The translations under genes were made by a program, and so were the position numbers. This document shows positions 11,147-56,838 of a DNA stretch of 64,000 bases, piece by piece. Source of the stretch: Candidatus Thorarchaeota archaeon (GTDB taxonomy: Archaea > Asgardarchaeota > Thorarchaeia > Thorarchaeales > Thorarchaeaceae). Within the stretch, counting starts at the first letter, position 1, and each line of letters begins with the position of its first letter. Under the pieces are notes generated by a model. It saw only the letters and a program-made list of their open reading frames with translations, was not told the origin of the DNA and did no database searches. The stretch is from NCBI GenBank assembly GCA_029858305.1, contig JAOUFI010000007.1, positions 763 to 64,762 of the forward strand, written 5' to 3'.

Positions 11147-11210
11147 CATAGAATGAATATAAGGAGTGGACAATCTTTGAACTGCATTGTGGTCTGCGCC
11201 ACAAACTCGA
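11147..11210. repeat. 64-bp dispersed promoter cassette, copy A
   Basis: 59/64 identical to 56775-56838; contains a minus-strand TTATAT box and a TTGTGG-N6-CCACAA inverted repeat. Confidence 0.9.
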
Positions 11211-11227
11211 TTTTTGATTGTTTTCGA

Positions 11228-11255
11228 TGAATGTTTAAAGGTTCGTTTACATTCA
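11228..11255 (+). promoter_or_regulatory. Candidate operator straddling the TATA box of the dehydrogenase/kinase operon
   Basis: TGAATGT-N14-ACATTCA inverted repeat enclosing TTTAAAG, 27 nt before the start codon. Confidence 0.4.
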
Positions 11256-11282
11256 CAATATTTGCATTAGGAGTGAGTTGAC

Positions 11283-12281
11283 TTGAAAATCCTCATCACC
11301 GCACCATTCTCAGACTCTTGTTTAAAACAGCTTCAGAATGAAGGATTTGTTGTCGATTATCGCAGTTGGCTTGAGAGTGGCAAGCTACACATGGGCGAAT
11401 CCTTACTAGCAATCCTAAAGGATGGAAACTATGATATCGTGATTGTCGAGGGTGATGAAATCAAAGAGCCCATTCTTGAAAAAATCAGTTTCAAGTTAAT
11501 AGGAGCGGTACGTGGGGATCCAAACAATATCGCGGTTGAAGCAGCAACTGCCAAGAGGATTCCAGTTCTTGCCGTACCTGGTCGAAACACGATAGCCGTA
11601 GCTGAGTTGACAATGGCACTAATCCTCAACCAAGCACGTCATATCAAAAAAGCAGAGTTGTTACTAAAGGATGATTTCTTTGTTGATGACTTCAAGGACT
11701 TTGCAGATATGTACACAAAATTACAGGGCTTCGAGCTAAATGGTCGAGTTGTTGGAATAGTTGGTCTTGGGAGTATTGGTTTTGAAGTAGCCAAGCGACT
11801 CATCTCATTTGGAGTGAGTATTCTCGTCTACGATCCCTATGTACTTCAAGAACGGGTAGAAGCAGTTGATGCAAAGGTAGTTGATCTTGACACTCTTCTG
11901 AGAGAGTCTGATATTGTGACAATTCATTGTACACCCACAGAGGAAACCCGAAGGCTCATCGGTGCTAGAGAATTTTCTCTTATGAAGAAGACTGCCATTT
12001 TCATAAACACAGCAAGAGCATCAATAACTGATGAAAATGCGTTGCTAGAAGCCCTCAATGAAGGAACCATTGCGGGTGCTGGACTAGATGTATTCTCTAT
12101 GGAGCCCGTAGATAGTGATAATATATTCCTTGAATTAGAAAACGTCACAGTTATGCCGCATATGGGAAGTAACACTCTTGAAACAATAGAACGACAATCC
12201 AGAATCATCACTGATGCGATTATTGAATTTGCGCAGAGGAAGAGACCTAGAAATATTGTAAATCCGGAGGTGTTTGACTAG
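11283..12281 (+). CDS. D-isomer-specific 2-hydroxyacid dehydrogenase (SerA/YoaD-like)
   Basis: GxGxxG (GLGSIG), INTAR, LDVFSMEP and PHMGS catalytic motifs. Confidence 0.9.
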   Translation: MKILITAPFSDSCLKQLQNEGFVVDYRSWLESGKLHMGESLLAILKDGNYDIVIVEGDEIKEPILEKISFKLIGAVRGDPNNIAVEAATAKRIPVLAVPGRNTIAVAELTMALILNQARHIKKAELLLKDDFFVDDFKDFADMYTKLQGFELNGRVVGIVGLGSIGFEVAKRLISFGVSILVYDPYVLQERVEAVDAKVVDLDTLLRESDIVTIHCTPTEETRRLIGAREFSLMKKTAIFINTARASITDENALLEALNEGTIAGAGLDVFSMEPVDSDNIFLELENVTVMPHMGSNTLETIERQSRIITDAIIEFAQRKRPRNIVNPEVFD

Positions 12282-12283
12282 AG

Positions 12284-13783
12284 ATGACTGTTGCCGCTAT
12301 TGATGCTGGCACAACTGGTGTGCGTTGCAGTATAATTGATTTAACTGGAAAGGTTCTAGGAATTGGAAGAGAATCATGGTATTACATAACTCCAATCGAT
12401 TTAGAGATTGCAAAGGAATTTGATCCAGAGCATTTCTGGCACCTGACCTGCAAAGTCATCAAAAAAGCGATCAAGACTTCTGGTGTAAAGCCCTCTGATA
12501 TCTTGTCTGTGGCTACAACGAGTCAAAGGCATGGTTGCGTCTTTGTCAATAAGGAAGGAAAGGAGGTCTATTGTGGTCCAAACATTGACGCACGAGGAGC
12601 TATGACTCAGTATATCATCGAGGAAGCACTTGGTGAGAAGTACCACGAAATCACAGGTTGCTGGCCGCCTCTCATGTTTTCCCCAGCGCGCCTCTCATGG
12701 TTTGAAGAGGAGGAACCTGAGATTTTTGAATCGATAGCCCACATACTACCTCTTAATGATTGGATAACCTACAGACTTGGAAATATCTTCGTTACCGACT
12801 CCTCAGCAGGAAGTGGTACGGGTTTCATGGATATCAGAACTAGTGAGTGGAGTGATGAAGTAGCAGATGCAGTTGGTATTGATACTGATATACTGCCAGA
12901 AATTCAAGAAACTGGAACAGTAGTAGGTGAAGTGACCGCAGAGGCTCACAAGGCTTGTGGATTGCCCAAGGGTCTTCCAATTGCTCAAGGTGGGGCGGAT
13001 ACCCATTGTGCACTGCTGGCGAGCAATACTCTGCCAGGAGAAATAGTTGTAGTTGCTGGAAGTACTGCTCCTGTGATGATGATTATAGATGACCTTTATT
13101 GCGACCCGACGCAGAAAATTTGGACTGGATGTCATATGATTCCAGGTCAATGGGTGCTTGAGAGCAATGCCACTCTGACAGGTGCATATTTAGAATGGGT
13201 AGTCAGATTACTCTGCGAACGTGCAAATGAACCTGAGAATTGCAAGCGAGCGACTCTCAATAATCTTGATGAGATCCTCGAAGATATTCCTCCTGGAAGC
13301 AATGAAACATTTGCTGCACTAGGTCCAAGCATCATGGACTGTCAACAGATTACTGATATCAAACAAGCAAAGATGGTTTTTCCGCAGCCTGCGTTACCCC
13401 AAGTGATTCCCCTCAACTCTGCAAGAATGATACATGCAGTCCTTGAGAATATTGCTTATGCTGTGAGAGGCAATTGTGCCCAACTGGAGGCGTATCGAAA
13501 AGCAAGTTGCTTCAAGACTATTGGAGGTATGACTCAGTCGCGCGTATGGCCTGATATGCTTGCCAATGTCCTTGGGCAGCCTGTGAACACTCCGCTTCAA
13601 CCAGAAGGCAGTCTGCTTGGAGCTGCAGTATGTGCTGCCAAAGGTGCTGATCATTATCCAAAGTTGATGGATGCAGCCAAGGCAATGGTCCAATGGAAAC
13701 CACCATCCAATCCTGATTATCGCGCAGATTTATACAAATCCTACTTTTCCAAATGGTCAACCATGTTTTGCGAAGGTGAGTGA
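12284..13783 (+). CDS. FGGY-family carbohydrate kinase (LsrK/YoaC-like)
   Basis: IDAGTT, EFDP, TSQRHG, NIDAR, GGADT, GGMTQS motifs. Confidence 0.88.
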   Translation: MTVAAIDAGTTGVRCSIIDLTGKVLGIGRESWYYITPIDLEIAKEFDPEHFWHLTCKVIKKAIKTSGVKPSDILSVATTSQRHGCVFVNKEGKEVYCGPNIDARGAMTQYIIEEALGEKYHEITGCWPPLMFSPARLSWFEEEEPEIFESIAHILPLNDWITYRLGNIFVTDSSAGSGTGFMDIRTSEWSDEVADAVGIDTDILPEIQETGTVVGEVTAEAHKACGLPKGLPIAQGGADTHCALLASNTLPGEIVVVAGSTAPVMMIIDDLYCDPTQKIWTGCHMIPGQWVLESNATLTGAYLEWVVRLLCERANEPENCKRATLNNLDEILEDIPPGSNETFAALGPSIMDCQQITDIKQAKMVFPQPALPQVIPLNSARMIHAVLENIAYAVRGNCAQLEAYRKASCFKTIGGMTQSRVWPDMLANVLGQPVNTPLQPEGSLLGAAVCAAKGADHYPKLMDAAKAMVQWKPPSNPDYRADLYKSYFSKWSTMFCEGE

Positions 13784-14421
13784 GAGTGTACGAAGATACA
13801 AAGAAAGAACTTTTGGACATCTGTATGCAAATGCTAACAAATGACCTAGTGATTGGTTCAGCAGGTAATGCTAGTGTTCGTGTGGATGACCATGTTGTGA
13901 TAACACCTAGCTCCATCCATTACTCTGAGATGAGTAGCGACGACATGGTTGTCCTCGATTTGAATGGTACCGTCCTTGAAGGCACTAGAAATCCTAGCAT
14001 CGAACATAAGATGCACCTCGCGCTTTACAACACACGAGAGGATGCTAAGGCAGTAGTACATACCCACAGTTTGTATGCCTGCGCAATGGCAATTCTGAAT
14101 GAATCGCTCCCTCCGATTATTGATGAAACTATAACTAAACTTGGTTCAGAGATTCGAGTCAGTAAATATGCAATGCCCGGCACAAAAGACCTTGCAACAA
14201 ATGTTCGAGAAGCAATGGAAGATAGAAGTGCTGCGCTCATTGGCAATCATGGTGCTGTATGCATTGCTAGGACAATGAAAGAAGCTCTACACCTAGCCAT
14301 CCTGCTTGAACGAATTTGCAAGATCTACATGATTGCCAAACAAGTTGGCACTCCCATTCATCTTCCTGAGGAAGTTGTTGAAGACGAGCAAGATGTATGG
14401 GAAATGATGAGGGATTACTGA
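13780..14421 (+). CDS. Class II aldolase (FucA-like)
   Basis: GNASVR, ITPSS, PSIE, VVHTHS, NHG metal-binding motifs. Confidence 0.9.
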   Translation: MRVYEDTKKELLDICMQMLTNDLVIGSAGNASVRVDDHVVITPSSIHYSEMSSDDMVVLDLNGTVLEGTRNPSIEHKMHLALYNTREDAKAVVHTHSLYACAMAILNESLPPIIDETITKLGSEIRVSKYAMPGTKDLATNVREAMEDRSAALIGNHGAVCIARTMKEALHLAILLERICKIYMIAKQVGTPIHLPEEVVEDEQDVWEMMRDY

Positions 14422-16203
14422 ATGTCTGGTTTTCATGGTAAGATATTGGTTGCGGATCTCTCTAAGATGGAAACAAGGTCAATTACAGTTGATAAACGGA
14501 TTTCCACGCTATTTCTAGGAGGTAGTGGGTATGCAAGCCATCTACTGTACGAATTATTAGATCCGGTCTCTGATCCCCTTGGTCCCGATAATATACTCCT
14601 ATTCATGACTGGCCCCTTGGCAGGCACTCTTGCTCCTTGTTCTGGACGTCATGTGGTGTGTGGGAAGTCTCCCATCACAGGGCAGTGGGGGGAATCCCAC
14701 TCTGGTGGGCATTTTGGAGCCAAATTGAAAGCCTCAGGATTTGATGGCATACTGGTCACTGGAGTATCAGAAATTCCCTTGACTCTCGATGTGAGCGATG
14801 GGATAGTTTCCCTTCACACTGCAGAGCATCTATGGGGTATGACGACTGAAGAAACCCAAAAGGCTCTGAAGAGTGATCAGGGACGAATACAGGCTGCTTG
14901 CATAGGTCCTGCGGGTGAGAATCTTGTCAAATTTGCCAGTATCGTAAATGACGAACGTGTTGCAGCACGATGCGGTTTGGGAGCTGTTATGGGTTCTAAG
15001 AAACTCAAAGCCATCACTGTTTCTGGGTCTCAAAGTACGCCTCTAGCTGCACCTGACGAGTTCAATGAGTTAGCACGTTCATCATCAAAGATTCTGGGTG
15101 AAGCCATGTCTATGCTCCGAGACCAAGGTACTGCAATGTACATTGACATCGGAATGATGTTCAATGATGTTCCAATCAAGTATTTCCAAGAGATTGAGTT
15201 CAATGACGCTGACCTCATTAATGCAAAATCGCTCGGCGAAATACTTACAGGAAGGAGTGCATGCCACTCGTGCCCAATTGGATGTGGAAGAAGAGTAACA
15301 CTACATGAGTACAATCTGGAGAACATTGCAGGACCTGAATATCAAACTCTTGCCGCATTTGGAACCAATCTCATGGTATCCGATCTAAAGAAAATCGCAA
15401 TCATGAACAGATTATGCAATCAATATGGAATGGACACTATTAGTTGTGGTAGTACAATTGCTTTTGCTACATATCTTTGTGATATAGGGAAAGCAGACTA
15501 TGGTCTACGATGGAATGACCCTGATGCGGTCATTGAACTAATTCATGCAATAGCTAGACGACAAGAGATTGGAAACATGCTTGCTGATGGATCGCTAAGT
15601 CTTGCCAAGTCACTTGGAGCCGAAGATTTGGCACTTCATGTCAAGGGCCTCGAAATCCCAAATCATGATCCTCGCGCCTTTTCAGGAATGGCAACAATTT
15701 ACACTACGGCGTCTAGAGGAGCTACGCATCTCGAAGGTGATATGTATAGTGTTGATATGGGCGCTGATGTACGAGAGCTTGGAATAACTAGTGGTGATCG
15801 ATTGGAAAACGAGGGAAAAGGGAGGATTGCCGCTCGAGCTCAGGACTTCAGAGCGTTCTGTGATTCTGTCATTATATGCCACTTTGCCATAGTTCCGCCA
15901 AGGACCATAATTGAACTTCTAAATCTAGCAATAGGAACTTCCTATCAAATTGACGACATTCTTCGAATCGGTGCACGTGCTGTTACAATGAAGCGACTGT
16001 TTAATTTACAGTGTGGTCTTAAGCCTCAAGACGAGCGATTGCCTAAGACCCTTCTTACTCCTCATGCCAAAAGTGTTACAGATGACTTCGTACCAGATGT
16101 AGATTCTCAGCTGCAAGATTATTACGAGTATCGAGATTGGGACCGAGGTACAGGCAAACCGAGAGATGGAGCTCTGCGTGAATTGAAAATTGATGTTAAC
16201 TAG
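14422..16203 (+). CDS. aor: Aldehyde:ferredoxin oxidoreductase (tungstopterin)
   Basis: GPAGENLV, GLGAVMGSKKLKAI, CHSCPIGC, GMDTISCG motifs. Confidence 0.92.
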   Translation: MSGFHGKILVADLSKMETRSITVDKRISTLFLGGSGYASHLLYELLDPVSDPLGPDNILLFMTGPLAGTLAPCSGRHVVCGKSPITGQWGESHSGGHFGAKLKASGFDGILVTGVSEIPLTLDVSDGIVSLHTAEHLWGMTTEETQKALKSDQGRIQAACIGPAGENLVKFASIVNDERVAARCGLGAVMGSKKLKAITVSGSQSTPLAAPDEFNELARSSSKILGEAMSMLRDQGTAMYIDIGMMFNDVPIKYFQEIEFNDADLINAKSLGEILTGRSACHSCPIGCGRRVTLHEYNLENIAGPEYQTLAAFGTNLMVSDLKKIAIMNRLCNQYGMDTISCGSTIAFATYLCDIGKADYGLRWNDPDAVIELIHAIARRQEIGNMLADGSLSLAKSLGAEDLALHVKGLEIPNHDPRAFSGMATIYTTASRGATHLEGDMYSVDMGADVRELGITSGDRLENEGKGRIAARAQDFRAFCDSVIICHFAIVPPRTIIELLNLAIGTSYQIDDILRIGARAVTMKRLFNLQCGLKPQDERLPKTLLTPHAKSVTDDFVPDVDSQLQDYYEYRDWDRGTGKPRDGALRELKIDVN

Positions 16204-16216
16204 TAACTAGCAGTCT

Positions 16217-16555
16217 TTACGTCTTTAATAAACGCTGTAATTTCATCAGGTCCTTTGCAGGTCCTTCTGCTTTTATTTTTCCACTCATGAATGCGCGCAT
16301 TGCTGAGAGATTTCCTGCAAGTATATCGATGATTGTCTTACTATCAGTTTTGATGGTCATATTGGGTTCTTCAATTGTGCGCATCTCAACAGTGCCTTTT
16401 CCATTCTCAAAGATGATTGCTACATCTTTTCCAAGATCATCAAATGACATAAGCAAGCTCTTACTATAGTTCACAAAGTGCTTCTGTATCTTAGGGTCTT
16501 CAGCTCTGTCAATCATCTTCTGTAATGTCAAGAGAATCTCATCATCTGTTACCAC
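16217..16555 (-). CDS. Second stand-alone SCP2 domain protein
   Basis: MRAFMSGKIKAEG...LMKLQ SCP2 C-terminus; shares DPKIQ..F..Y.K.L with 7774-8106. Confidence 0.82.
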   Translation of the reverse strand: MVTDDEILLTLQKMIDRAEDPKIQKHFVNYSKSLLMSFDDLGKDVAIIFENGKGTVEMRTIEEPNMTIKTDSKTIIDILAGNLSAMRAFMSGKIKAEGPAKDLMKLQRLLKT

Positions 16556-16668
16556 AGGTCCGTCTCCATAGTTGTATGCATCTTACAAATGAAATGATAA
16601 TAGAAAAGTCTGTCGAGTTTAGTCCTCTTCCGGTAGATTATTCCGTGGTTCACTATCGGGATTGTTGG

Positions 16669-17604
16669 GTGTGTGCCTTACAAACAATATTCGACACTGC
16701 TGCACAGTTTGGTCTGTTCTATGGACTCATTGTACTTGGCTATGTCATAGCAAAGGTATCAGGGAGGGGAAAAGTAATCAATAAACACCTCACATTCATA
16801 CTGATTTATCTACTAATCCCTCTCCTCTTCATTTACACCTTACTCACAGCATCTCCAGACACGCTGCTAGACATACCCCTCATTGTTGCTTTGGTATTAT
16901 TAGTTCTCCTTCTGGGCCCTGCTTTTATGTATATCCGACTATGGAAGCGCGATATTGATGATTCAACAAAAGGTGTTTTCTATCTCTGTGTCACTTTCAA
17001 CAATGCTCTTTTCATACCATTGCCTTTGGTCTTGATGTTCATCGGTAGCGCTGGGATTCCAATCATCATCATTTTCTCTCTCACACAGATGATCCTTCTA
17101 GCAACACTGGGTTCGTTTATGGGAGCTATTTATGGTAGTAAGACATCGCAGTTGTCTAGAATTGCGAAGGATGCACTCACATTCCCTCCCTTTATTGCAG
17201 CGATTATAGCATTAGTCCTATTCACAGCTCAAGTTAGATTGACTGGAGACCTTGCTTCTGTATTTTCGTTCGCAGGTCCCTTGACAACGTATCTTGCACT
17301 GATCTCTGTTGGGGTAAGCATAGGAGTACGATTCTCTCTTATTGATATCAGAGCTGCCTTGGAAGTCGTTGGTATACGACAGCTATTGGTGCCTCTAATC
17401 ACGATACCAATCATTATTCTTTCTGGACTCTCGCACGTGACCACCTCAATTATTATTCTTGAGGCTCTAATGCCTCCTGCTGTTCTCACTGTTGTTTATG
17501 CTACAAGCTTTGAGCTTGATGCTGAAAAAGCTGCAACAATAGTGACCGTTGGGACACTCTTCCTCCTACCAATCATTCCATTTGTATCGATACTGCTTGG
17601 CTAG
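16669..17604 (+). CDS. AEC (auxin efflux carrier) family transporter
   Basis: About 10 TMs, FNNALFIPLP and EALMPPAV motifs. Start is uncertain (in-frame GTG 16669 chosen because the ORF-track start overlaps the divergent SCP2 gene). Confidence 0.8.
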   Translation: MCALQTIFDTAAQFGLFYGLIVLGYVIAKVSGRGKVINKHLTFILIYLLIPLLFIYTLLTASPDTLLDIPLIVALVLLVLLLGPAFMYIRLWKRDIDDSTKGVFYLCVTFNNALFIPLPLVLMFIGSAGIPIIIIFSLTQMILLATLGSFMGAIYGSKTSQLSRIAKDALTFPPFIAAIIALVLFTAQVRLTGDLASVFSFAGPLTTYLALISVGVSIGVRFSLIDIRAALEVVGIRQLLVPLITIPIIILSGLSHVTTSIIILEALMPPAVLTVVYATSFELDAEKAATIVTVGTLFLLPIIPFVSILLG

Positions 17605-17668
17605 TTGTATGCTCAATCTGAAGGCATATATTGGCTTTAAATCGATAAAAAAATGAGTTGTATTAATC

Positions 17669-17983
17669 TTGGATGAACAAGAATCAAAGAAAGATCCTAC
17701 TAAGATCAAAGAGTCTCTTGATGATATAGTTCACAAGCTGGAACAAGACAGCTCTTCAAGTACGAGTTGGGGCGATTTTATCACTTCCAATAAAGAAGAT
17801 TGGGAAAACATTAAGAAACAGATTCAAGAACGGCAGAGAGCATTGAAACAGCTTGTGACTGATAAGAAAGCTGGATTGGTAGGAATTAACGAATTTGAAA
17901 CGAAATACAGAAAGTTGCAGGATGAGCTTGCTGAACTGGAAATAGCTGTCTATAACCGTCGCCTCGGTACAAATGTCAAATAG
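17669..17983 (+). CDS. Small charged helical/coiled-coil hypothetical protein
   Basis: 104-aa ORF fills the gap; heptad-like C-terminal half. Confidence 0.65.
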   Translation: MDEQESKKDPTKIKESLDDIVHKLEQDSSSSTSWGDFITSNKEDWENIKKQIQERQRALKQLVTDKKAGLVGINEFETKYRKLQDELAELEIAVYNRRLGTNVK

Positions 17984-17994
17984 ATATTATCGCG

Positions 17995-19047
17995 CTACTC
18001 AGCTCTGGCTCTCTGAATCAAAAGAATCGTTTCAATTATTATGATGATTCCGAGAACCGATATGAGCGCAATCAATCCAATATTCACGCTCTCATTCACA
18101 ATGCCTCCTGATCTCCCCTCTATTCCTGAAACAAGAGCTCCAAGATTAAAGGTCATCATAGAGAAGTAATCCGATTCCGGATAGAAAATCGTCTGCCACC
18201 AAATCAGTGTTCCTCCGTAGTCTTCTTGAAGTTGGTAGGCGTATTCTCCTCCTGCCTTAAATTGTGAAACATCAGAACCAAGAATGAGTTCCACTGTACC
18301 ATTTCTAAGAGCAGTTTGGACCTCTAGAAGCTTCGCTCCAGATATCGTGATATCCTCGACCTGAAGGACAGCATCGCATGGTATCCCGAATGTTTCTGCG
18401 ACATATGCTTCAGCAGGAGAAACTACTATTGCTCGCATATCTGAGTAACTGTGAATTTCATCAAGAGACTCTACGAGCGACTGGAGATTATCCATTTTTT
18501 GGGTAAAGGAGTCAAAGTTAGAAGACCACGAGTCACTGAGAGTTGAGTTCAAGACCGAGAGTGCTGCTCGCGTGGCATTTGCTATAGCTATTGCATTCTT
18601 TGGGAGGAGCCAGTATGCATGAGGATTGCCACCAGTTCCTTCAAACTCTATGCCGCCTGGTAAGGGTGAAAGTCCGGCTCCAAAATTCTCGTATTGCTCC
18701 CAAGCATCCTCATCCTGAAATGATATGAAGGGTTTGGCTGTCTGATTGGCAATATCCTTCTCCCAATGGAAATGTCCTGTGAAAACAAGCAGATCTGCTG
18801 CTTCTGCAGCAGCTATAATTGCAGGATTGACCGTAAAGGCGTGCGGGTCCGTCTGCTGTTCTAGAAGAATTGATATACTTACCAACGCTCCTCCAATTTC
18901 TTTAACGATTCCTGCAAGTGATGGTACTGATACAGCAACTTTGTGTATAGGTTGCACTTGCGCTTTAACCGGCACAGTAGTCCAACTTAGCACTAAAGGA
19001 GCAAAAAACAATACAAGCAGGAGCAATGTAGCTTCTTTGTGTTTCAC
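17995..19047 (-). CDS. Metal ABC transporter solute-binding protein (ZnuA/TroA-like) with C-terminal TM anchor
   Basis: Signal peptide, DPHAF and NPHAYWL His ligands, C-terminal hydrophobic helix. Confidence 0.88.
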   Translation of the reverse strand: MKHKEATLLLLVLFFAPLVLSWTTVPVKAQVQPIHKVAVSVPSLAGIVKEIGGALVSISILLEQQTDPHAFTVNPAIIAAAEAADLLVFTGHFHWEKDIANQTAKPFISFQDEDAWEQYENFGAGLSPLPGGIEFEGTGGNPHAYWLLPKNAIAIANATRAALSVLNSTLSDSWSSNFDSFTQKMDNLQSLVESLDEIHSYSDMRAIVVSPAEAYVAETFGIPCDAVLQVEDITISGAKLLEVQTALRNGTVELILGSDVSQFKAGGEYAYQLQEDYGGTLIWWQTIFYPESDYFSMMTFNLGALVSGIEGRSGGIVNESVNIGLIALISVLGIIIIIETILLIQRARAE

Positions 19048-19166
19048 ACTCTCTCACCAAAACATCAAATGGTGTAGTACCTCGGTCTGCTCTAACGCTC
19101 TTTCTGAAACGTTATTAAGGATTGTGAAATAGTTACTAACTCGATTAAGGTCGATAGGTGTTAATA

Positions 19167-47950: not shown

Positions 47951-47953
47951 GTT

Positions 47954-48967: not shown

Positions 48968-49095
48968 GTGGGGAGTCCTCTTACAGCTGATGGCTGAACG
49001 AAAACGTGAAGGACTTTGAGACCATTTAAGAGTTATTGGATTGAGGAGATGCCAAAACTAATGAGCTTAAGAGTGAAGCATGAGACCTTGATACT

Positions 49096-49641: not shown

Positions 49642-49701
49642 AAGTATTCCTTGTTATGGCTTAAATAGCAGGTCTGATATCAAAACTCGGAGTTATCTAC
49701 T

Positions 49702-51210
49702 TTGCAGAATAATGTAGATGTGGATGCCATTCGCCTAATCCGCCTCACTGGACTTAAAGAGAGTGAAATTGCCGATGCAAGAAACCAAGGTGGTGAGAGC
49801 TGGAGTAAAATTGCCCGGTCAATCAAAGAACACGAACAGCTCATCTCAATGGGTGAAAAGCATACAAGGCAAAAAGCCATTCAGGATCCCGTTCATGGAG
49901 CTATTCTATTTGATCCATGGGAGCTAGACATCATCTCATCCTGGGAAATGCTTCGGCTTCGATATGTGATGCAGCTTGGACCTGCACATATTGTTTATCC
50001 TGGGGCTACACACACTCGGTTCCAACACTGCCTAGGCACTAATTTTCTTGCCCAGAAGTCAATCCGTGTGGTGAATTACTGTGAAGATCTTGATTGTGGT
50101 CACTTTACTCCTTTCTCTAACCTGCTTGATGATTATCAGAGGAAATTGTTTAGAGCATCAGCCTTGCTTCACGATGTTGGCCATCCACCCACTTCTCACA
50201 CCATCGAGTTCGCCCTACAGTCTTGGGCTGGCATCAATCACGTAGATCTGGGAGAGTATTTAGTCCTAAATAGTGGACTCACTGACATCCTCCAAAAGAA
50301 CGATATAGAACCACAGGATATAATGAGTATTCTGAGAGGAAAAACCAACAATCCTGTATTGAGGATTCTCCATGACTTTCTAGATCATCCCTTAGATATC
50401 GATAAAACAGACTATTTGATTCGGGATGCACATTATAGTGGTGTACAGCTAGGAGTATTTCCTGCTGAACGAGTTATGCTAACCAACCGCGTAGTTATGG
50501 ACAGAGAAGGAAAATACGTTCGTGCTTTCATGTTGAAAGCAATACACTCTCTTGAGTCTCTGATTCTTAGTCGCAATTGGATGTTCTCTGACCTGTATCT
50601 TCACCATGCAGTAAAACTTGCAGAGGCTCTTGTGTCAAAAGCAACATACTTCAGAATGGAAGAAGAATCTCTTACAAAGAATGAGTGTATCGGTCTCTTT
50701 ACCAGAATGAATGATAGCGACCTCTTCCGCTGGCTCTCCGAATCGGAGGTTGCTTTCGTTAGGGAATATGTATCACGAATCCGATATAGACGGCTGTTCA
50801 AGGTGGCTCTTCTTAGACCTCTTGTGGCATTTGAACCAAGTGCTAGAAAGAAGCTTCTCCTGATGCTCGATGAAATCACTAATCTGATTGAAACAGAGAA
50901 TGAGCTCTCAGAGGAACCTGGCAGCGTAGTAGTCGACGTTGTAGTTCCAGAATTAGGAGAAAAGACCTTGAGTAAGATACCACTCCTGATTGGTGGTGAA
51001 CGAGGTTTCGACCTTGTAGGTCTGGATGAAACAAAGGAGGGCTTTCCTCTTCTGCAGATTCTGAAGCAGCAATCACGAACAATCCCATCAGTTCGTGTAT
51101 ACTCAGAACCTAAGATTGCTAACGCTGTCAGGAAGAAGTTTGAAGAACTATTTCCACCAGCAGATATTCCTACATATCGGGAAGATGAATATGATTTTCT
51201 AGAGTATTAG
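49702..51210 (+). CDS. SAMHD1/YwfO-like HD-domain (d)NTP triphosphohydrolase
   Basis: QDPVHG, RLRYVMQLG, YPGATHTRFQHCLG, LHDVGH, DIDKTDYLIRD. Confidence 0.88.
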   Translation: MQNNVDVDAIRLIRLTGLKESEIADARNQGGESWSKIARSIKEHEQLISMGEKHTRQKAIQDPVHGAILFDPWELDIISSWEMLRLRYVMQLGPAHIVYPGATHTRFQHCLGTNFLAQKSIRVVNYCEDLDCGHFTPFSNLLDDYQRKLFRASALLHDVGHPPTSHTIEFALQSWAGINHVDLGEYLVLNSGLTDILQKNDIEPQDIMSILRGKTNNPVLRILHDFLDHPLDIDKTDYLIRDAHYSGVQLGVFPAERVMLTNRVVMDREGKYVRAFMLKAIHSLESLILSRNWMFSDLYLHHAVKLAEALVSKATYFRMEEESLTKNECIGLFTRMNDSDLFRWLSESEVAFVREYVSRIRYRRLFKVALLRPLVAFEPSARKKLLLMLDEITNLIETENELSEEPGSVVVDVVVPELGEKTLSKIPLLIGGERGFDLVGLDETKEGFPLLQILKQQSRTIPSVRVYSEPKIANAVRKKFEELFPPADIPTYREDEYDFLEY

Positions 51211-51884
51211 AGTAGATGCTTGATGTTTTCAATGACTTTCCTGAAACCATGTTCCATCTGAATGATTCCAAAGATAGCCTCAACAAGTGTTCCCTTATCA
51301 TGCTCTATCTCAGCTTTGCCTGGAACATCAGGATCAAAGTGAATTCTATGTTCGTAGAGTCCCCATCGATCGCACAGGTTTGCCATGTGCATGTTACTAA
51401 CAATCTCTGATTTTTCTTGTGTGATGTGCCCGACATCACTTGGATCTGGTTGCCATAACTGGTACAATACGCCCATATCAATTACAGAGTCCCCAAGCAG
51501 AGCTATCACCTGAGCTATCTCACTTAACGCTATTAGGTCTGCGAACTCGTGATCCTCTAATGGATTGTTCCTCTCATTCTTATAATGCGTGTCTAGCTCT
51601 AGGAATAGGTTCTTTGTACTTGGCTGGAACATTACTACCTGTACGATTTCGATATTTTTGATTCTTATATCTAGAATTTTCTCTAACTTTGGAATCAACT
51701 GACGACGAATATACTCCAAGCGTATCTGTACTTCTTTAAGTTGCTCTCTCCATCGGTCGATTTTTGCATGGAGCCGTGTCTTGTTCGCTTGGGTTTCCTT
51801 TCCTGTCTGATCTATAGCTTTCAATAAGACCTCGAGCTTTTTTTCTATGTGAATAGGTTTCAAGGAGAGTTTCATCCGACTCAA
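51207..51884 (-). CDS. RNase III-domain protein without dsRBD, N-terminal coiled coil
   Basis: LLGDSV, VSN..MA.L...GL, GTLVEAIFG match the RNase III signature blocks. Confidence 0.72.
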   Translation of the reverse strand: MSRMKLSLKPIHIEKKLEVLLKAIDQTGKETQANKTRLHAKIDRWREQLKEVQIRLEYIRRQLIPKLEKILDIRIKNIEIVQVVMFQPSTKNLFLELDTHYKNERNNPLEDHEFADLIALSEIAQVIALLGDSVIDMGVLYQLWQPDPSDVGHITQEKSEIVSNMHMANLCDRWGLYEHRIHFDPDVPGKAEIEHDKGTLVEAIFGIIQMEHGFRKVIENIKHLL

Positions 51885-51897
51885 GATTTCATCCTCC

Positions 51898-52671
51898 TCA
51901 GTAATAGCTTATCTCGGCATTTGTCCTATCATATCTCGTTACACGGAAAGCAGTGATTGAGTACTCAATTGCAAGCTTTGCCATTGCTAGGGTGACCAAT
52001 GACGGCCCGAGAGTCAAATCGATTACCATATCGTGAATAAAGATGTTATCAATTATTCCTGCCTCCATGAAATCAACAGTGCCTTGTAAGTTTCCATATT
52101 CTGTTTCATCATCAGTTCCCGTAACCTCGTCTGGGACTTCAATCCATTCTGTTGTCCAACGTCGGAAAGCATCATCAGGTATGAATCGATCAACTATCCT
52201 TGATACACCTCGAGTCCAGTGTCTTGCCTCCACGAAAACAAGCAATTTCTTTGGATTGAAGTAGGGATTGTTTGTTAACCACTGTACAAACGGTCGTTGA
52301 TCCTCAGGTCGGCTAAGAGACGTAACATACAAAAGCGGTTTTGAGATTCCTAACGCTCTCCGAACAGGATGAATAGCTCTTGGCTCAAGTTCAAAAAGGC
52401 GGTATTGAGATTGTTTCCAGCTGACGATAATCCCCAAGTCTTCGAGGCGTCCAGTGTTATGATAAAGCTTGGGACTAGTCACCTCAACCTTCTCAATCTC
52501 CCTCTTACTCGCACCCTCCACCATCATCTGTGCCTTGATGTCCGTAGCAATCTTCTCTCTAAGTTCTGCGCCAGTCTTCAGTCCTCCCTCAAGTTGATCA
52601 AGAATAATCCGTCTTGCCCTCACTGTTTCAATCTCTTCTTTGATCATATCTTCAAGGGATTTTCGGAGCAT
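51898..52671 (-). CDS. wHTH + CARF-like Rossmann domain regulator
   Basis: N-terminal wHTH (KLYHNTGRLEDLGII..W); C-terminal strands LYVTSLS, KKLLVF, EWIEVP, MVIDLTLG...LAM..LA, TAFRV follow CARF order. Confidence 0.62.
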   Translation of the reverse strand: MLRKSLEDMIKEEIETVRARRIILDQLEGGLKTGAELREKIATDIKAQMMVEGASKREIEKVEVTSPKLYHNTGRLEDLGIIVSWKQSQYRLFELEPRAIHPVRRALGISKPLLYVTSLSRPEDQRPFVQWLTNNPYFNPKKLLVFVEARHWTRGVSRIVDRFIPDDAFRRWTTEWIEVPDEVTGTDDETEYGNLQGTVDFMEAGIIDNIFIHDMVIDLTLGPSLVTLAMAKLAIEYSITAFRVTRYDRTNAEISYY

Positions 52672-52947
52672 TTTATCACACTATCCGCGGATATATTATC
52701 TAGTAATCTCATGTATTAACCTTTTATACTTATCGAAGATAATGTCCTCTCCTGCCTGAAAAACGCTCAGAAAAGCCTCTACAATATACATTGTTAAGAT
52801 ACTTTTCGAAAAGAAAGAGGGGCCGTCCGACGAACCCTTAAATAGAATTTGCAGAAACGGTGTAGTAGCAAGGAGCTTCTCTAGCTCTGAACTGGCGAAT
52901 CTGAATTTCTGGATTTGTCTAAAATTAAAATACACGAGGACCGAAAA

Positions 52948-54087
52948 ATGGCTGAAGACGAGTTTCTTGGCGCAAAGCCGATTGTCATTGACAACGGCAC
53001 TGGATTGAGCAAGAACGGATACGCCGGCGAAGATCAGCCACGAAGTGTCTGGCCGACTCTGATTGGTTATCCAAGATATGAGTCAATCATGACCGATGTT
53101 GATCACTACACACGTGACTACTACATCGGTGAAGAGGCTATCAACCTACGTGGTGTCCTACGTCTGGTTTACCCGATCTCTCATGGAATTGTAGAAGACT
53201 GGGATGCCATCGAGAAGATTTGGAGCTACACGTTCTATAACGACTTGAAGGTAGACCCAAGCGAGAACCCGGTGCTCCTCACTGAGGCACCATTCAACCC
53301 CAGAGAGAACAGAGAGCGTATGGCCTCCGTCATGTTTGATAACTTCGGAGTACCCGCAGTATATGTTGCCACACAGGCAGTGCTATCACTGTACGCATCT
53401 GGTAGAACAACTGGTCTAGTCATCGACTCTGGTGACGGTGTGACCCACATAGTACCAATCTATGAGGGCTTCTCAATCAATCATGCCATCCGCAGAATCG
53501 ATTTAGCTGGAAGAGACATCACCGAGTATCTGCGCAGACTACTCAGACAGAGGGGTTACTCCTTTGTCAGTGGTGCAGAGAAAGAGATTGTCAGAGATGT
53601 CAAAGAGAAGCTATGTTACGTAGCTCTCGATCCCGAGAGGGAACGAACTGTTGCTGACAAGGCTGGTGTCGACAAACCCTACATGCTTCCTGATGGTGAA
53701 GTAATCACTGTTGGTGCAGAGAGGTTCCAAGCTCCTGAGTTGTTCTTCAACCCAAGTGCTATTGGTCTTGACACAATGCCACTCGATGAACACATTGTCG
53801 AGTCAATCAAGGCTTGTGATGTCGACTTGCGACGTGACCTGTACGCCAATGTTGTGCTATCCGGCGGTTCAACTATGTTCCCTGGACTCAAGGAGAGACT
53901 CCACAAGGAGATCACCGAACTAGTACCCGAGAACATCGAGGTTCGTATCATTGCTCCACCAGAGAGACAGTACTCTGTCTGGATTGGTGGTTCTATCCTC
54001 GGCTCACTGAAGACCTTCCAGAAGATGTGGGTCTCAAAGAAAGAGTTCGAAGAAGTCGGACCCGAAGTCATACACCGCTGTATCTAG
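52948..54087 (+). CDS. Asgard (Lokiactin-type) actin
   Basis: [73 protein letters not shown]; ATG 52948 behind GAGG. Confidence 0.97.
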
Positions 54088-54139
54088 TATACAATTAGTT
54101 TACCGAAGAGGGAGTCTTTCCCTCTTCGCTCTCTTGTTT
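54038..54139 (+). repeat. Actin 3' end + terminator, copy 1 (functional gene)
   Basis: Direct repeat of 54775-54870. Confidence 0.9.
54104..54128 (+). terminator. Actin terminator hairpin
   Basis: CGAAGAGGGA-GTCTT-TCCCTCTTCG (10-bp stem) followed by a T-rich tract. Confidence 0.75.
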
Positions 54140-54146
54140 TTCTATC

Positions 54147-54698
54147 TCATTGCTTGTCTTCATCGGAATCAGTTTGGTTCTTTTGCCACCATGGCGGCTT
54201 CTTTTCCAAAAGTTCATCCTCAGGTTTCTTTATTCCTACATTTACAATCCGTATGACAACAAGACCTAGTATAAATTGGAAGGGTAGTGGTCCCGCATAG
54301 ATCCCACTAGTATAAGCTTCAAATGGAAATGAAATTCCTAGAAAGAAAATGGGTATAACCAAGCTCAGAATACCCGAAATGATTGTCCATCGTTGAGCAG
54401 TTGGTTTTATGCAATAGTACGTGACCTGAAGAGCATAGATTACGAAGAATAATAATAACATAAAAATCACCGCCACATACATTGGTCCAATCATCCATCC
54501 TGATGGCTCAGCTCCTCCAGGTGGAGAATAAGATCCAAAGAGGAAATAGTATATTGGTTCCATTTCCCATCCTATTCCTGCTTGGTATGAAAGCGAAATC
54601 GAACCTATGACCAACGGTGTCAAAAATGTCACGCACCATAACAGGAGTAGTCCAAGCTTTGCCTGCCATCTATTTATAGAACTCATCCAATCCCTCAA
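54147..54698 (-). CDS. 4-TM membrane protein lying between the two actin 3'-end copies
   Basis: 183-aa hydrophobic ORF, the only gene between the repeats. Confidence 0.75.
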   Translation of the reverse strand: MRDWMSSINRWQAKLGLLLLWCVTFLTPLVIGSISLSYQAGIGWEMEPIYYFLFGSYSPPGGAEPSGWMIGPMYVAVIFMLLLFFVIYALQVTYYCIKPTAQRWTIISGILSLVIPIFFLGISFPFEAYTSGIYAGPLPFQFILGLVVIRIVNVGIKKPEDELLEKKPPWWQKNQTDSDEDKQ

Positions 54699-54774
54699 TT
54701 ATCAATAGATCACAGTCGGAAATAAATCTCTTCAATAGTAAAAGTATGTACTAGATATTTGATATCAAATTTTT

Positions 54775-54870
54775 AGAAAGAATTCGAGGAAGTAGGACCC
54801 GAAGTCATACACCGCTGTACCTAGTCTGTTCTTGGTTTACCGAAGAGGGATGCTCTTCCCTCTCTTGTTT
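54775..54870 (+). repeat. Actin 3' end + terminator, copy 2 (orphan fragment)
   Basis: Encodes [15 protein letters not shown] and keeps an AGAGGGA/TCCCTCT hairpin. Confidence 0.9.
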
Positions 54871-54899
54871 TAATTGCTGAATTAAGAAAGGCAAATCTA

Positions 54900-55898
54900 T
54901 CATCTGTAGGGGCAAAACGTGCTCTCGATGTAGGAAAGGTCTTCCTCAATATTTCTCCTTAACTTGGTCAGAATTTGCTTACTTCTCTCATCAAGTGCAT
55001 CAAAGGAGCCCTTGTCAGCTAAATCGTAGTCCATGTTCAGTGCAATATAATGAATGAACTCGAACAATTTCAGTGCCTTTGACAAATCCTCTGCCCACAA
55101 CTTGTTCAAGTGATTCTCTCTCTGATATCCAACCATGAAGTGCTTGAGATAGATGTCCGCAAACTCACGATTAGTCATACTCTCTGGTTTCTCCCATATT
55201 GAAAATCCAAGTGCGTTAGCGATATCGAAGACGAAGAAACCGTATGCACAATCATCAAAGTCAAGGATAGTAAGTCGCTTGTCATCCAGGAATAGATTGG
55301 CATGGTGGACATCCTGATGAATTAGTCCAAATGAGTCGCGTGAAGTTGGTTTATCCTTGAAGTATTCCATAAGTGCATCGAATCGTTCAAGTACCCTTTC
55401 CTGGTCCGATGGAATCCATGCACGGCGCAAATATTCATCGTCATACCATTGTATTCGTCCAGTTACTTTTGATGGTGGTCTGTAGTCCTTTGTGAGTCTG
55501 TGCATTAACCCTACTGCTTCTCCCCATGTTTGGAAAAGCTCTGGGGAGAAATCATCCTTTGTTACCAGATGACCAGGTGCCCATTCAAAGCATACAACCG
55601 AGATCGCTCCTGCATCGGTATCGACTGTTTCAACGAGGTTATTGCTCTGAGAAGGGATCACACGTACAACCGGTGCATCATGCTCAGATAGGTATGCCAA
55701 CCAGTTCATCTCCGCCTTCACTTCAGCCTGCGTCTTATGACCTGGTGGAGTGACCCGCACGACGAGCCTATTTTCGGTAGCATCAAACCCGAACATCTTG
55801 TTCTCGTACCCTCCCCCGAGCTTCACGAGTTTGTTTACTACGAATCCATAGAGAGTTGAGGCTTCTTCAAGTGCGGTTTGCAACCAGTGTTCGGTCAT
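54900..55898 (-). CDS. APH/type II homoserine kinase-like phosphotransferase
   Basis: LVVRVT, GLIHQDVHHAN, ILDFDD (Brenner-type motifs); start at ATG 55898. Confidence 0.88.
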   Translation of the reverse strand: MTEHWLQTALEEASTLYGFVVNKLVKLGGGYENKMFGFDATENRLVVRVTPPGHKTQAEVKAEMNWLAYLSEHDAPVVRVIPSQSNNLVETVDTDAGAISVVCFEWAPGHLVTKDDFSPELFQTWGEAVGLMHRLTKDYRPPSKVTGRIQWYDDEYLRRAWIPSDQERVLERFDALMEYFKDKPTSRDSFGLIHQDVHHANLFLDDKRLTILDFDDCAYGFFVFDIANALGFSIWEKPESMTNREFADIYLKHFMVGYQRENHLNKLWAEDLSKALKLFEFIHYIALNMDYDLADKGSFDALDERSKQILTKLRRNIEEDLSYIESTFCPYR

Positions 55899-56115
55899 CT
55901 CCCGTTTTTCTCGGAATGCTACATAAGATGGTTGCGAACAATGCAATAGGATTGAGTGGTAGCCTCAAATATAACAATATTAGAGGGTCTTATTATGCAT
56001 ACTACTCATTAGTTTGGTTCATCAATGCCAGCAAAAGCTGATCTAGATTATGTATGAATTCTGAAGGCAGGCTACATTGCCCACCTTCATATTCGTTTAT
56101 GATGTCAGTTTATGT

Positions 56116-56751
56116 CTAAATCTCATTAGCTTTAGATGTTCCCATCAAGTAACCGCCGAAGCTAATAATCCAAGCGAGAATTGGATAGATTGCCCAACGT
56201 TCCAATGACCCTTTTGCCATCCCAAGAAATGTCTCTGTAGAGCCAGCTGGAAGACCCAAATAGGGTATGAAGACAATTGATAGAACGATTGACATCAATC
56301 CAAGCGTAGCTGCCATTATTGACATTGGTTTACTCTGGAACGAATACGAACCAATGGCTGCTAGCGCTCCAAACATAATTGCTAGCAAGGTAGCAACACT
56401 ATGCATAGGCTGAAGATTAGCCGGGAATATCCCTACGCCCATTGCACCGATTCCAGAAATCGTCAAGAGAATTGGAAGAAGCTTTCTCTCTGTAGCCTTG
56501 AACAAGAAAAATGCACCAAAGACCATGAAAGCTCCGAGCAAGAAAACAGAAAGATTGTAGATTAATGCAGTCGGTCCAGTTCCAAGGTCACTGACATAGT
56601 CAATGCGGCTACTATAGCCATCATACCATGACTCCGCAGCAAGAATGCCCAAGAACCACTGAATACCTCCGATTAGGAAGAAGCAACCACTTACTGCTAT
56701 CTTATCAAACCGTTCTACTAGATTTGTTAGTGAAGTTGTAGATTCTGTCAT
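56116..56751 (-). CDS. DUF998 family membrane protein
   Basis: YS...YVSDLG, GVGIFP, H..A, G.LER motifs. Confidence 0.82.
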   Translation of the reverse strand: MTESTTSLTNLVERFDKIAVSGCFFLIGGIQWFLGILAAESWYDGYSSRIDYVSDLGTGPTALIYNLSVFLLGAFMVFGAFFLFKATERKLLPILLTISGIGAMGVGIFPANLQPMHSVATLLAIMFGALAAIGSYSFQSKPMSIMAATLGLMSIVLSIVFIPYLGLPAGSTETFLGMAKGSLERWAIYPILAWIISFGGYLMGTSKANEI

Positions 56752-56774
56752 TTTGAATCACGCATTTGAACATG

Positions 56775-56838
56775 CATAGAATGAATATAAGTAGTGAACA
56801 ATCTTTGAACTACATTGTGGTCTGCGCTACAAACTTGA
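56775..56838. repeat. 64-bp dispersed promoter cassette, copy B
   Basis: 59/64 identical to 11147-11210. Confidence 0.9.

Follow-up and report, generated by a model that had tools for sequence, protein, structure and literature searches.

Two old paralogous sequences, probably promoter modules, upstream of an ABC-2 exporter operon and a DUF998 gene in Thorarchaeota

Introduction

The stretch of DNA analyzed here (the window; 64,000 nucleotides of a Candidatus Thorarchaeota genome) contains two short, nearly identical sequences at positions 11147-11210 (copy A) and 56775-56838 (copy B). What kind of element do these copies represent, and what does it do in front of an ABC-2 exporter operon and a gene for a DUF998 membrane protein? 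The initial annotation of the window interpreted them as a mobile or recombined promoter/operator cassette with unrelated flanks, placed before two unrelated envelope genes, and named a small RNA as an alternative. To our knowledge, almost nothing about gene regulation in Asgard archaea has been established experimentally.

Results

Recomparison of the window sequence bore out the annotated match between copies A and B, which are identical at 59 of 64 positions; the chance expectation for occurrences of the 22-nt core in the window is 0.00. Searches of the 3.04-Mb assembly with the 64-mer by BLAST and with a profile HMM recovered the two full copies (each at E ~1e-20) and nothing further, the next match having an E-value of ~1. 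No third copy was found in this genome by BLAST, nhmmer, or a sequence-only covariance model. A 16-nt match on contig C31 (TTATATTCATTCTATG; E=0.17) is a lone TATA-like stretch. Weak covariance-model matches in genomes G016 (contig C208) and G024 (contig C47) lie inside zinc-ribbon-like coding sequence and are false positives, and a match in G034 (E=1e-3) was not reproduced by nhmmer. All 27 other genomes of the genus carry the element, as do 8-9 of the 16 genera of the family, from which 69 copies were examined. Its identity is 0.826, compared with 0.449 at 4-fold sites and 0.896 at codon positions 1 and 2 of the adjacent gene; the element is under purifying selection close to that on amino-acid-changing sites. 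The copies are non-coding, as annotated: open reading frames overlap them mechanically and are unconserved, and an ATG-TAG stands there in most relatives.

Copy A lies 24 nt from the minus-strand ATG at 11122 and copy B 23 nt from that at 56751; the divergent plus-strand genes start at 11283 and 56974, at distances of 72 and 135 nt. These spacings and the neighboring genes (an ABC_tran/ABC2 permease operon, the DUF998 gene, and an HTH_34 winged-helix protein at 8095-8445) agree with the initial annotation. The genes of the copy A operon and the stem-loop within it are as follows.

10376-11122, minus strand: DrrA-like ABC ATPase (Pfam)
9213-10373, minus strand: ABC-2 permease (Pfam)
9196-9213, minus strand: stem-loop GGAGTCC-TTCG-GGACTCC with a T-run behind it, immediately past the permease stop
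8448-9125, minus strand: 225-amino-acid multi-pass membrane protein of no known family
8095-8445, minus strand: HTH_34/PH1061-like winged-helix (wHTH) protein of 116 amino acids (Pfam and structure-database match)

In 68 of the 69 copies, the element has a single orientation and stands directly 5' of either the DrrAB-like ABC-2 exporter operon or the DUF998 gene, with the start codon ~24 nt away; random positions or orientations relative to genes were not seen. The remaining copy, in G016, is a relic left after deletion of the operon. This placement supports the proposal of a common promoter/operator before two envelope-related transcription units.

On the gene side, contrary to the initial annotation, the flanks are related: homology between the copies runs on across the 5' UTR and as far as codon 18 (37 of 54 nucleotides and 10 of 18 amino acids; BLASTP E=1e-6), and the true repeat unit is thus ~141 nt long, spanning 11069-11210 and 56698-56838. 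Its coding parts are:

11069-11122, minus strand: 18 codons at the start of the ABC ATPase gene (MSESAIKITNLTKRFDDI), included in the duplicated unit
56116-56751, minus strand: DUF998 membrane-protein gene, whose first 18 codons (56698-56751; MTESTTSLTNLVERFDKI) come from the 5' end of the ABC ATPase

The Pfam DUF998 domain begins at residue 27 of the gene product, and the N-terminus that precedes it is ABC-ATPase-like. An N-terminus of this kind on a DUF998 gene points to an old segmental duplication that carried the 5' end of the ABC ATPase onto DUF998. The two genes are likewise not as unrelated as first annotated: they have these 18 codons in common, and their units stand in tandem (element-DUF998-element-ABC) in genomes G012, G036, and G078.

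These observations bear on whether the copies could belong to a cassette that is mobile or was recently recombined, such as a MITE-like element, an att site, or the outcome of recent gene conversion. The two copies in this genome are 0.93 alike over 61 nt, whereas the average within-genome pair is 0.82 alike, and the chromosomal place of the ABC operon varies between genera, as a mobile element might predict. However, only two copies exist per genome, constantly before the same two genes at equal spacing, with constant partners in 68 of 69 copies across 8-9 genera; terminal repeats and target duplications, the marks of a MITE, are absent; and the 45-kb interval between the copies contains core genes such as actin. 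Moreover, mean paralog identity within genomes (0.82) equals cross-genome paralog identity (0.81), which indicates that the duplication is old and predates the radiation of the family, and this identity comparison gave no general signal of gene conversion between copies. We therefore regard mobility or recent recombination as extremely improbable and treat the copies as two fixed sites.

Alignment of relatives divides the element into conserved blocks with free spacers. Since the host is a Thorarchaeota archaeon, an assignment that its actin gene also supports, archaeal promoter logic applies and a sigma-70 framing does not. The parts of both copies read as follows.

11192-11206, minus strand: copy A dyad GTTTG-TGGCG-CAGAC, a putative operator/UAS with 5-bp arms and a free 5-bp spacer
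56820-56834, minus strand: copy B dyad GTTTG-TAGCG-CAGAC (alignment of relatives)
11166-11180, minus strand: copy A proximal box TCAAAGATTGTCCAC, which stops 3 nt short of CTTATATT, in the place expected of a BRE
56794-56808, minus strand: copy B proximal box TCAAAGATTGTTCAC (genus alignment)
11157-11162, minus strand: copy A TATA box TTATAT, 34 nt before the ATG
56785-56790, minus strand: copy B TATA box TTATAT, 33 nt before the ATG
11123-11156, minus strand: copy A downstream promoter and short leader with conserved CATTCTAT; predicted transcription start site (TSS) near 11133 (+/-3)
11129-11132, minus strand: copy A Shine-Dalgarno (SD) motif GTGA (from sequence)
56752-56784, minus strand: copy B downstream promoter and leader; predicted TSS near 56761 (+/-3)
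56757-56761, minus strand: copy B SD motif GTGAT (from sequence)

The TTATAT motif, annotated from the outset as a likely TATA box, stands up well. Positions T46, T49, and A50 are invariant in 42 rows of the genus alignment, and T47, A48, and T51 are at least 90% conserved; across the family, TTATAT occurs in 29 of 31 aligned rows, and the two that lack it are false positives in coding sequence. Its distance from the ATG is fixed at 33-34 nt in the aligned copies. Archaeal TATA boxes lie ~26-28 nt before the TSS (PMC8553660), and the fixed box fits an archaeal TBP/TFB promoter that would leave a leader of ~10-11 nt including the SD motif. SD-like motifs in this genome peak at -11, which GTGA(T) at -10 fits. 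Immediately upstream of the TATA box, the sequence reads GTCCACnYC (CCACTYC) and does not resemble a classical purine/A-rich BRE. Hexamer enrichment aimed at a genome promoter consensus, against which the BRE and the CATTCTAT block could be judged, was suggestive, with small counts; TTATATTCA was not over-represented in the genome (45 seen vs 58 expected), and a home-made EM search of genome promoters for a TATA motif did not converge. The proximal box is at least 90% conserved within the genus and partly so across the family, and in copy A it includes CAAAG/ATTG letters similar to the half-sites of the dyad.

The initial annotation had placed its operator at an inverted repeat, TTGTGG-N6-CCACAA, that is perfect in copy A only and unconserved in relatives. 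The conserved dyad is offset from this repeat and has the 15-bp consensus GTTTG-N5-CA(A/G)AC, with (near-)invariant arms and a variable spacer in 39-42 sequences. As expected of an operator bound by a wHTH dimer, the arms pair in 99.5% of cells and there are no indels. The copies of genus g7 read GCTTG/GCGTG...CAAAC. The centers of the half-sites are 10 bp apart, which corresponds to one helical turn, and a rigid spacing of 37-40 bp separates the center of the dyad from the TATA box downstream of it, with no gaps between the two in 42 sequences.

Could the same conservation reflect a structured RNA, either a minus-strand cis leader or a plus-strand small RNA that extends from after a AATATAAG box to a hairpin and T-run? 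The very high conservation of non-coding sequence, the hairpin and T-run on the plus strand of copy A, and the U-A/U-G variation in the 5-bp stem, which allows RNA pairing on the minus strand, would be compatible with this reading. However, RNAalifold recovered the 5-bp dyad only, with zero compensatory changes, and the 6-bp helix originally proposed, TTGTGG-N6-CCACAA, was rejected on 39 sequences, being broken at two pairs in 24 and 18 of them and performing no better than shuffles. Fold z-scores were 0.29, 1.06, -0.24, and 0.85, and the element has no match in Rfam. The T-run is missing from copy B and from relatives, no conserved promoter stands upstream of the DUF998 copies to make a long leader, and conservation in blocks with free spacers likewise argues against a folded transcript. 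We consider an RNA very unlikely.

The initial annotation named the wHTH at 8095-8445 as a possible reader of the element, and it proves a reasonable candidate. The element and the wHTH co-occur at the genus level: both are present in seven genera and neither in another seven (20 genomes). Orthologues of the wHTH share 85-94% identity and, in at least 20 genomes, are found ~2.76 kb downstream of the ABC copy, oriented the same way; the gene order from 8095 to 11122 is conserved in genera g1, g31, g10, g33, g7, and g6. The wHTH is always paired with the 225-amino-acid membrane protein. It matches the Pfam models HTH_34, HTH_24, HTH_5, MarR, and HTH_20 and is homologous over residues 23-98 to the dimeric archaeal regulator homologue PH1061 (1ub9; E=1.5e-9). 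No match to GntR (PF00392) was found at E<=1e-3, which leaves it outside the YtrA subfamily. Assignment as an ArsR/SmtB metalloregulator was rejected, with NF033788 scoring 30.1 bits against a cut-off of 55 and no cysteine among the 116 amino acids. On genus-level co-occurrence and gene linkage, this PH1061-like protein is the best candidate reader of the element.

A regulated promoter might instead be read by another HTH_34/ArsR-like paralogue or a global regulator, with the wHTH/membrane-protein pair serving another role. Most genomes contain paralogues of the wHTH gene (35-47% identity). The genera with both element and wHTH include g3, where the wHTH is mostly unlinked to the element and the pair usually stands under its own promoter without a dyad. 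G008 and G024 keep a well-conserved element before DUF998, and no wHTH orthologue was detected in them, the whole neighborhood being missing from these assemblies. Finally, an 87-nt gap with a conserved terminator-like hairpin and T-run separates the permease from the pair in this genome. The stem-loop at 9196-9213, which precedes the pair, probably acts as a partial terminator or attenuator. Twenty relatives retain it with loops that vary, and a more distant relative has another hairpin in its place. The gap with its hairpin and the dyad-free promoter of the pair in g3 imply that autoregulation is not general. Against a different factor stand the genus-level agreement in presence and absence, the unusually high conservation of the wHTH and likewise of its putative site, and the location of the pair inside an element-driven unit in six of seven genera and in some g3 genomes. 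We judge a different reader unlikely, and we retain the PH1061-like protein as the candidate in what follows.

Discussion

We consider it likely that the two-copy repeat represents old paralogous archaeal promoter/5' modules of ~140 bp, controlled by a transcription factor and copied once, along with ~18 codons at the start of the gene. In minus-strand order, each module comprises the dyad, the proximal box (TCAAAGATTGTCCAC in copy A), TTATAT, ~22-24 bp to the predicted start, a leader of ~10-11 nt with GTGA(T), and the ATG with ~18 codons. One module would drive the DrrAB-like ABC-2 exporter operon and the other the DUF998 gene, making a two-member regulon. A dimeric winged-helix factor, for which the PH1061-like HTH_34 protein at 8095-8445 is the best candidate, would bind the dyad through half-sites one helical turn apart, and its 225-amino-acid membrane partner may sense a signal or sequester it. 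Repressors in archaea mostly occupy sites that overlap the TATA box or follow it, and for archaeal wHTH regulators a site upstream of the BRE/TATA region goes with activation and one over or downstream of it with repression. The dyad, centered 37-40 bp upstream of the TATA box at a rigid spacing, is thus a poor fit for repression, and its position suggests activation from upstream as the factor's most likely mode of action. Repression might instead arise through additional occupancy of the proximal box that abuts the TATA/BRE. The DUF998 family has been linked to membrane-lipid homeostasis (PMC13370385), and the gene content (a drug/lipid-type exporter plus DUF998) suggests an envelope or membrane response.

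Several known systems resemble this arrangement. YtrA_Sa of Sulfolobus acidocaldarius is a small winged-helix regulator encoded beside a membrane-protein gene; its regulon consists of exactly two membrane-protein loci, each carrying the same semi-palindromic site flanked by half-site-like motifs (PMC6746942). The Thorarchaeota system shares with it a small wHTH next to a membrane-protein gene and two loci with a common palindromic site. However, YtrA_Sa belongs to the GntR/YtrA subfamily, whereas the Thorarchaeota wHTH matches HTH_34, ArsR, and MarR models; its operator covers the transcription start, consistent with repression, whereas the Thorarchaeota dyad lies ~40 bp upstream of the TATA box; and the Sulfolobus regulon lacks the ABC exporter that the Thorarchaeota pair includes. 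In Bacillus subtilis, YtrA is co-operonic with an ABC exporter (ytrGABCDEF) in an envelope-stress/antimicrobial response (PMC12772383, PMC8060467), and the streptococcal MbrR/MbrAB module pairs a repressor with an exporter that itself controls the regulator (bioRxiv 10.64898/2026.02.18.706565). In both, as proposed here, an operon-encoded wHTH controls the exporter and a few other membrane-protein genes via a common palindrome. These modules are bacterial, with sigma-70 promoters and GntR-family regulators, in contrast to the archaeal TATA/TFB promoter and different wHTH family in Thorarchaeota, where the regulator's constant partner is, unlike in the YtrA/MbrR modules, a 225-amino-acid membrane protein without known family.

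Winged-helix dimers also act on promoter palindromes of transporter operons plus a second target in TrmB/TrmBL1 (Thermococcales, ABC-transporter operons) and the MarR-type activator BldR (Saccharolobus solfataricus). Their motifs differ, they serve sugar uptake or aromatic-aldehyde detoxification, and we liken them to the present system without sequence comparison. Among proteins of solved structure, the candidate regulator is most closely related to PH1061 of Pyrococcus horikoshii (PDB 1ub9); we know of no published DNA target or regulon for PH1061, and a literature search on it returned nothing relevant.

A more speculative scheme, to which we give little credence, would make the dyad the activating site of a membrane-tethered pair. 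The 225-amino-acid protein would hold or release the wHTH upon a membrane or lipid signal, the exporter and DUF998 would be switched on jointly, and the ABC-derived N-terminal strand would dock DUF998 onto the transporter. If true, this would be a compact sensor-regulator-effector circuit hitherto undescribed in Asgard archaea.

The regulatory mechanism itself is conventional. With its dyad, TATA box, and leader defined, the family-wide, strongly constrained module of ~90 bp ranks among the clearest candidates for an operator/regulator pair in an uncultured lineage of Asgard archaea, and it is open to direct tests with recombinant protein and synthetic DNA. The module would functionally link DUF998 to an ABC-2 exporter, and it offers a clean example of regulon recruitment in which a promoter was duplicated along with the first codons of the neighboring gene.

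A repeated, probable promoter element upstream of two transcription units

The 64-bp element at 11147–11210 (copy A) and 56775–56838 (copy B) aligns without gaps at 59 of 64 identical positions, and a 22-nt core is found twice in the window, against 0.00 times in shuffled sequences. BLAST and a profile HMM identified just these two full copies in the 3.04-Mb assembly; the HMM, built from relatives, matched both with E ~1e-20, while the next-best match in the whole assembly had E ~1. The minus-strand genes next to copies A and B start at 11122 and 56751, 24 and 23 nt away, and the divergent plus-strand genes start at distances of 72 and 135 nt. The repeat, spacings, and neighboring genes described in the initial annotation were therefore confirmed, the genes by Pfam:

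8095–8445, gene side of copy A: HTH_34 winged helix (wHTH)
8448–9125, gene side of copy A: 225-aa membrane protein, no family in the Pfam search
9213–10373, gene side of copy A: ABC-2 permease
10376–11122, gene side of copy A: ABC_tran ATPase
11283–12281, plus strand, divergent from copy A: 2-hydroxyacid dehydrogenase
56116–56751, minus strand, gene side of copy B: DUF998
56974–58227, plus strand, divergent from copy B: CitMHS permease

One further site matches the TATA block exactly over 16 nt (TTATATTCATTCTATG; G000:C31:437-452, locus L003; E=0.17), which may be due to chance. This site adjoins the start of a minus-strand gene and lies ~85 nt before a 2-oxoacid:ferredoxin-oxidoreductase-like gene.

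By BLAST, almost every genome of the genus carries the element, at 78–93% identity and usually twice; copies that share a contig are 45–50 kb apart in three genomes (G005, G014, and G018), as they are here. A sequence-only covariance model (R1) detected the element in 27 of 27 other genus genomes and in eight other genera of the same family, with a weak hit in one. We fetched and annotated 69 copies for gene context. The gene directly 3' encodes the ABC ATPase in 42 and DUF998 in 26, and 68 copies share one orientation with a gene start ~24 nt past the 64-mer. Both an assembly artifact and random placement are excluded. The last copy (G016:C92, element 1498–1561; L022) is a relic at a deleted operon: the deletion begins exactly at the ATG and extends through the wHTH, leaving the element next to the SCP2 gene that is the 3' neighbor of the wHTH in other genomes. 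A search of the same relic-bearing genome did not find DUF998, which looks like co-loss of both element-driven units. On the other side, the neighbor of ABC copies is constant within the genus (dehydrogenase), whereas that of DUF998 copies varies. Two side observations concern individual assemblies. One own-genus genome contains a third copy (L079; G018:C288; 72% identity) in the dehydrogenase-SCP2-element-ABC ATPase order typical of genus g3, which may stem from contamination of the bin or from an additional operon of foreign origin. Two near-identical 3930-nt contigs of genome G009 (C22 and C23; L015 and L038) carry the same locus at ~90% identity and are probably two strains binned together.

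Anatomy of the element

Among the genes of the window is one for a true actin (PF00022, E=5e-133). Because the organism is a Thorarchaeota archaeon, promoters were read as archaeal (TATA/BRE, TBP/TFB) rather than sigma-70. Shine-Dalgarno use is strong genome-wide, with SD-like motifs 9–15 nt before start codons and a peak at -11. Read in gene orientation (minus strand) from alignments A2 and A3, the consensus is A-GTTTG-N5-CA(A/G)AC-N4-ATG-N4-TCAAAGATTGTCCAC-N3-CTTATATT-CATTCTAT-N~16-C-GTGA(T)-N5/6-ATG. The stretch from the dyad to the TATA box contains zero indels in 42 genus sequences, in which variation is limited to short spacers; the dyad (especially GCAAAC), CAAAgA..gTCCAC, TTATAT, GTGA, and the ATG context are the most persistent features family-wide. 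TTATAT lies 33–34 nt from the ATG. Archaeal TATA boxes are found ~26–28 nt before the transcription start (PMC8553660), so starts are predicted near 11133 and 56761, on a purine at or just before the invariant GTGA. The predicted leader of ~10–11 nt would still contain the Shine-Dalgarno motif.

The arms of the GTTTG-N5-CA(A/G)AC dyad pair in 99.5% of cells, solely through unchanging arms, and the spacer is free to vary. No compensatory changes were found in the dyad among the aligned copies; together, these features argue for a protein site rather than an RNA helix. Half-site centers are 10 bp apart, or one helical turn, a geometry that would be expected for a dimeric winged-helix protein. 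The TTGTGG-N6-CCACAA inverted repeat originally highlighted is perfect in copy A only. A small RNA had been offered as an alternative, but of the six pairs in the proposed 6-bp helix, two fail to form in 24 and 18 of the 39 sequences, and the helix did not exceed shuffles by any measure in this set. Neither strand of either copy showed excess folding energy (z -0.24 to +1.06), Rfam had no match in the window, and the plus-strand hairpin and T-run of copy A are absent from copy B and relatives. Judged from these sequence comparisons, the element does not appear to be an RNA.

The genus ABC/dehydrogenase intergenic region has a second conserved block at 11229–11243 (CCCTTTAAACATTCA, minus strand), which holds a plus-strand TTTAAA at 11234–11239. 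The block is located 43 nt before the TTG start of the dehydrogenase, which has a GGAGTGAG Shine-Dalgarno sequence, and is probably the TATA box of this divergent gene.

Constraint and origin

Among 21 orthologous ABC-type copies, the mean identity of the element is 0.826 over 64 nt, compared with 0.449 (near saturation) at 4-fold degenerate sites and 0.896 at codon positions 1+2 of the adjacent ATPase gene. The element is therefore constrained almost as tightly as amino-acid-changing positions.

The flanks had been considered unrelated; on the gene side, however, homology continues from the 64-mer through the leader into the coding sequences of the ABC ATPase and DUF998. Of the first 54 coding nucleotides, 37 are identical (11069–11122 vs 56698–56751, minus strand), whereas in-frame windows taken elsewhere from the ABC gene averaged 14.6 and reached at most 23. 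The encoded protein starts, MSESAIKITNLTKRFDDI (ABC ATPase) and MTESTTSLTNLVERFDKI (DUF998), are identical at 10 of 18 residues (BLASTP E=1e-6). These 18 residues form the first beta-strand region of the ABC ATPase and the Pfam DUF998 domain begins only at residue 27, which identifies the ABC gene as the donor. The ABC-like tail is recognizable in DUF998 proteins of several genera (e.g., MSKSVTSITSLTKRFDTTTL and MLQPGITVANLTKSFES), whereas other genera show it in decayed form; it may serve to dock DUF998 to the transporter. Three genomes (G012, G036, and G078) retain a tandem [element]-DUF998-212 nt-[element]-ABC ATPase order, and in G067 DUF998 lies downstream of the ABC operon. A segmental duplication, probably in tandem, of promoter, leader, and ~18 codons that captured DUF998 explains all of these observations. 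Identity between ABC and DUF998 copies is 0.82 within genomes and 0.81 across genomes, close to that of orthologues (0.85 and 0.79), which indicates that the duplication is old. The 92% identity of the two copies here thus reflects constraint, perhaps with a little local conversion, and the mobile or recombined cassette envisaged previously was not borne out.

A candidate regulator

In the Pfam search, the wHTH at 8095–8445 matched HTH_34 (E=2e-17), with weaker matches to ArsR/MarR-type models; it falls below the cut-off for ArsR/SmtB metalloregulators and lacks cysteine. Among proteins of solved structure, Pyrococcus horikoshii PH1061 is its nearest relative (1ub9, E=1.5e-9). Within the genus, orthologues share 85–94% identity and exceed both the permease and the dehydrogenase in conservation. 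They are located ~2.76 kb downstream from the ABC copy, oriented as it is, and are always directly preceded by the 225-aa membrane protein. This pair closes the ABC operon in genera g1, g31, g10, g33, g7, and g6, and in two g3 genomes (L065 and L066) it closes the DUF998 unit ([element]-DUF998-membrane protein-wHTH). At the genus level, element and wHTH orthologue are both present in 7 genera and both absent from 7 (20 genomes); in one further genus, the contig is cut at the relevant place. This co-occurrence is not entirely trivial because the g3 pair is usually unlinked to the element (L113–L116): it lies between MBL-fold-like and thioredoxin-like (EKSPYLLQHAYNPVDWYPW) genes, lacks the dyad, and has a TATA-like ACTTAATAC of its own. 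Two genomes (G008 and G024) have a good element before DUF998 in assemblies that contain no wHTH; loss and a missing region are indistinguishable there because the membrane protein, ABC genes, dehydrogenase, and next membrane-protein gene are absent as well.

In this genome, the 87-nt gap after the permease stop contains a GGAGTCC-loop-GGACTCC hairpin followed by a T-run (9196–9213, minus strand); the GGAGTCC-N4-GGACTCC stem-loop overlaps the stop codon. The stem sequence is kept with varying loops in 20 relatives, a distant relative has another hairpin, and a conserved AGAGTTATTA..GG.GGTTT.GAAAGTGAA follows. The stem-loop is probably an internal terminator, attenuator, or processing site, so that the membrane protein/wHTH pair may be attenuated or separately transcribed. 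Overall, we rate the chances that the wHTH reads the element as roughly even.

Mode of action and function

The dyad center is rigidly spaced 37–40 bp upstream of the TATA box. Archaeal activators such as Ptr2, BldR, and TrmBL1 usually act at such upstream sites, and the position of the dyad suggests activation. The stretch at the BRE position is CCACnYC and not A-rich, which might fit activator dependence. Archaeal repressors usually cover the TATA/BRE or start site, as does YtrA_Sa (PMC6746942). The proximal box, which directly adjoins the TATA box, holds CAAAG/(A/T)TTG letters that resemble dyad half-sites; alternatively, cooperative occupancy of dyad and proximal box could therefore cause repression.

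YtrA_Sa is the closest known system in logic: this small archaeal wHTH is encoded beside a membrane-protein gene, and its regulon comprises two loci that share a semi-palindrome (PMC6746942). Two bacterial exporter-repressor modules, YtrA/ytr and MbrR/MbrAB, come close as well (PMC12772383; bioRxiv 10.64898/2026.02.18.706565). Pfam found no GntR domain in the wHTH, which places the present system outside that family, and the operator position differs.

The element is real, under strong conservation, and specific to this lineage, and most probably serves as the promoter and operator of two units that form one regulon; it arose from a segmental duplication long ago and is not mobile. The shared promoter/operator first proposed for these units is supported, with GTTTG-N5-CA(A/G)AC as the likely operator in place of the repeat originally assigned, and regulation from this shared promoter is very probable. 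The ATPase and permease constitute a DrrA/DrrB-like ABC-2 exporter, and one studied DUF998 protein, the Enterococcus faecalis DrmA, influences the amounts of glycolipids in the membrane (PMC13370385). That the two units share a role in an envelope or membrane response is at most a reasonable guess.
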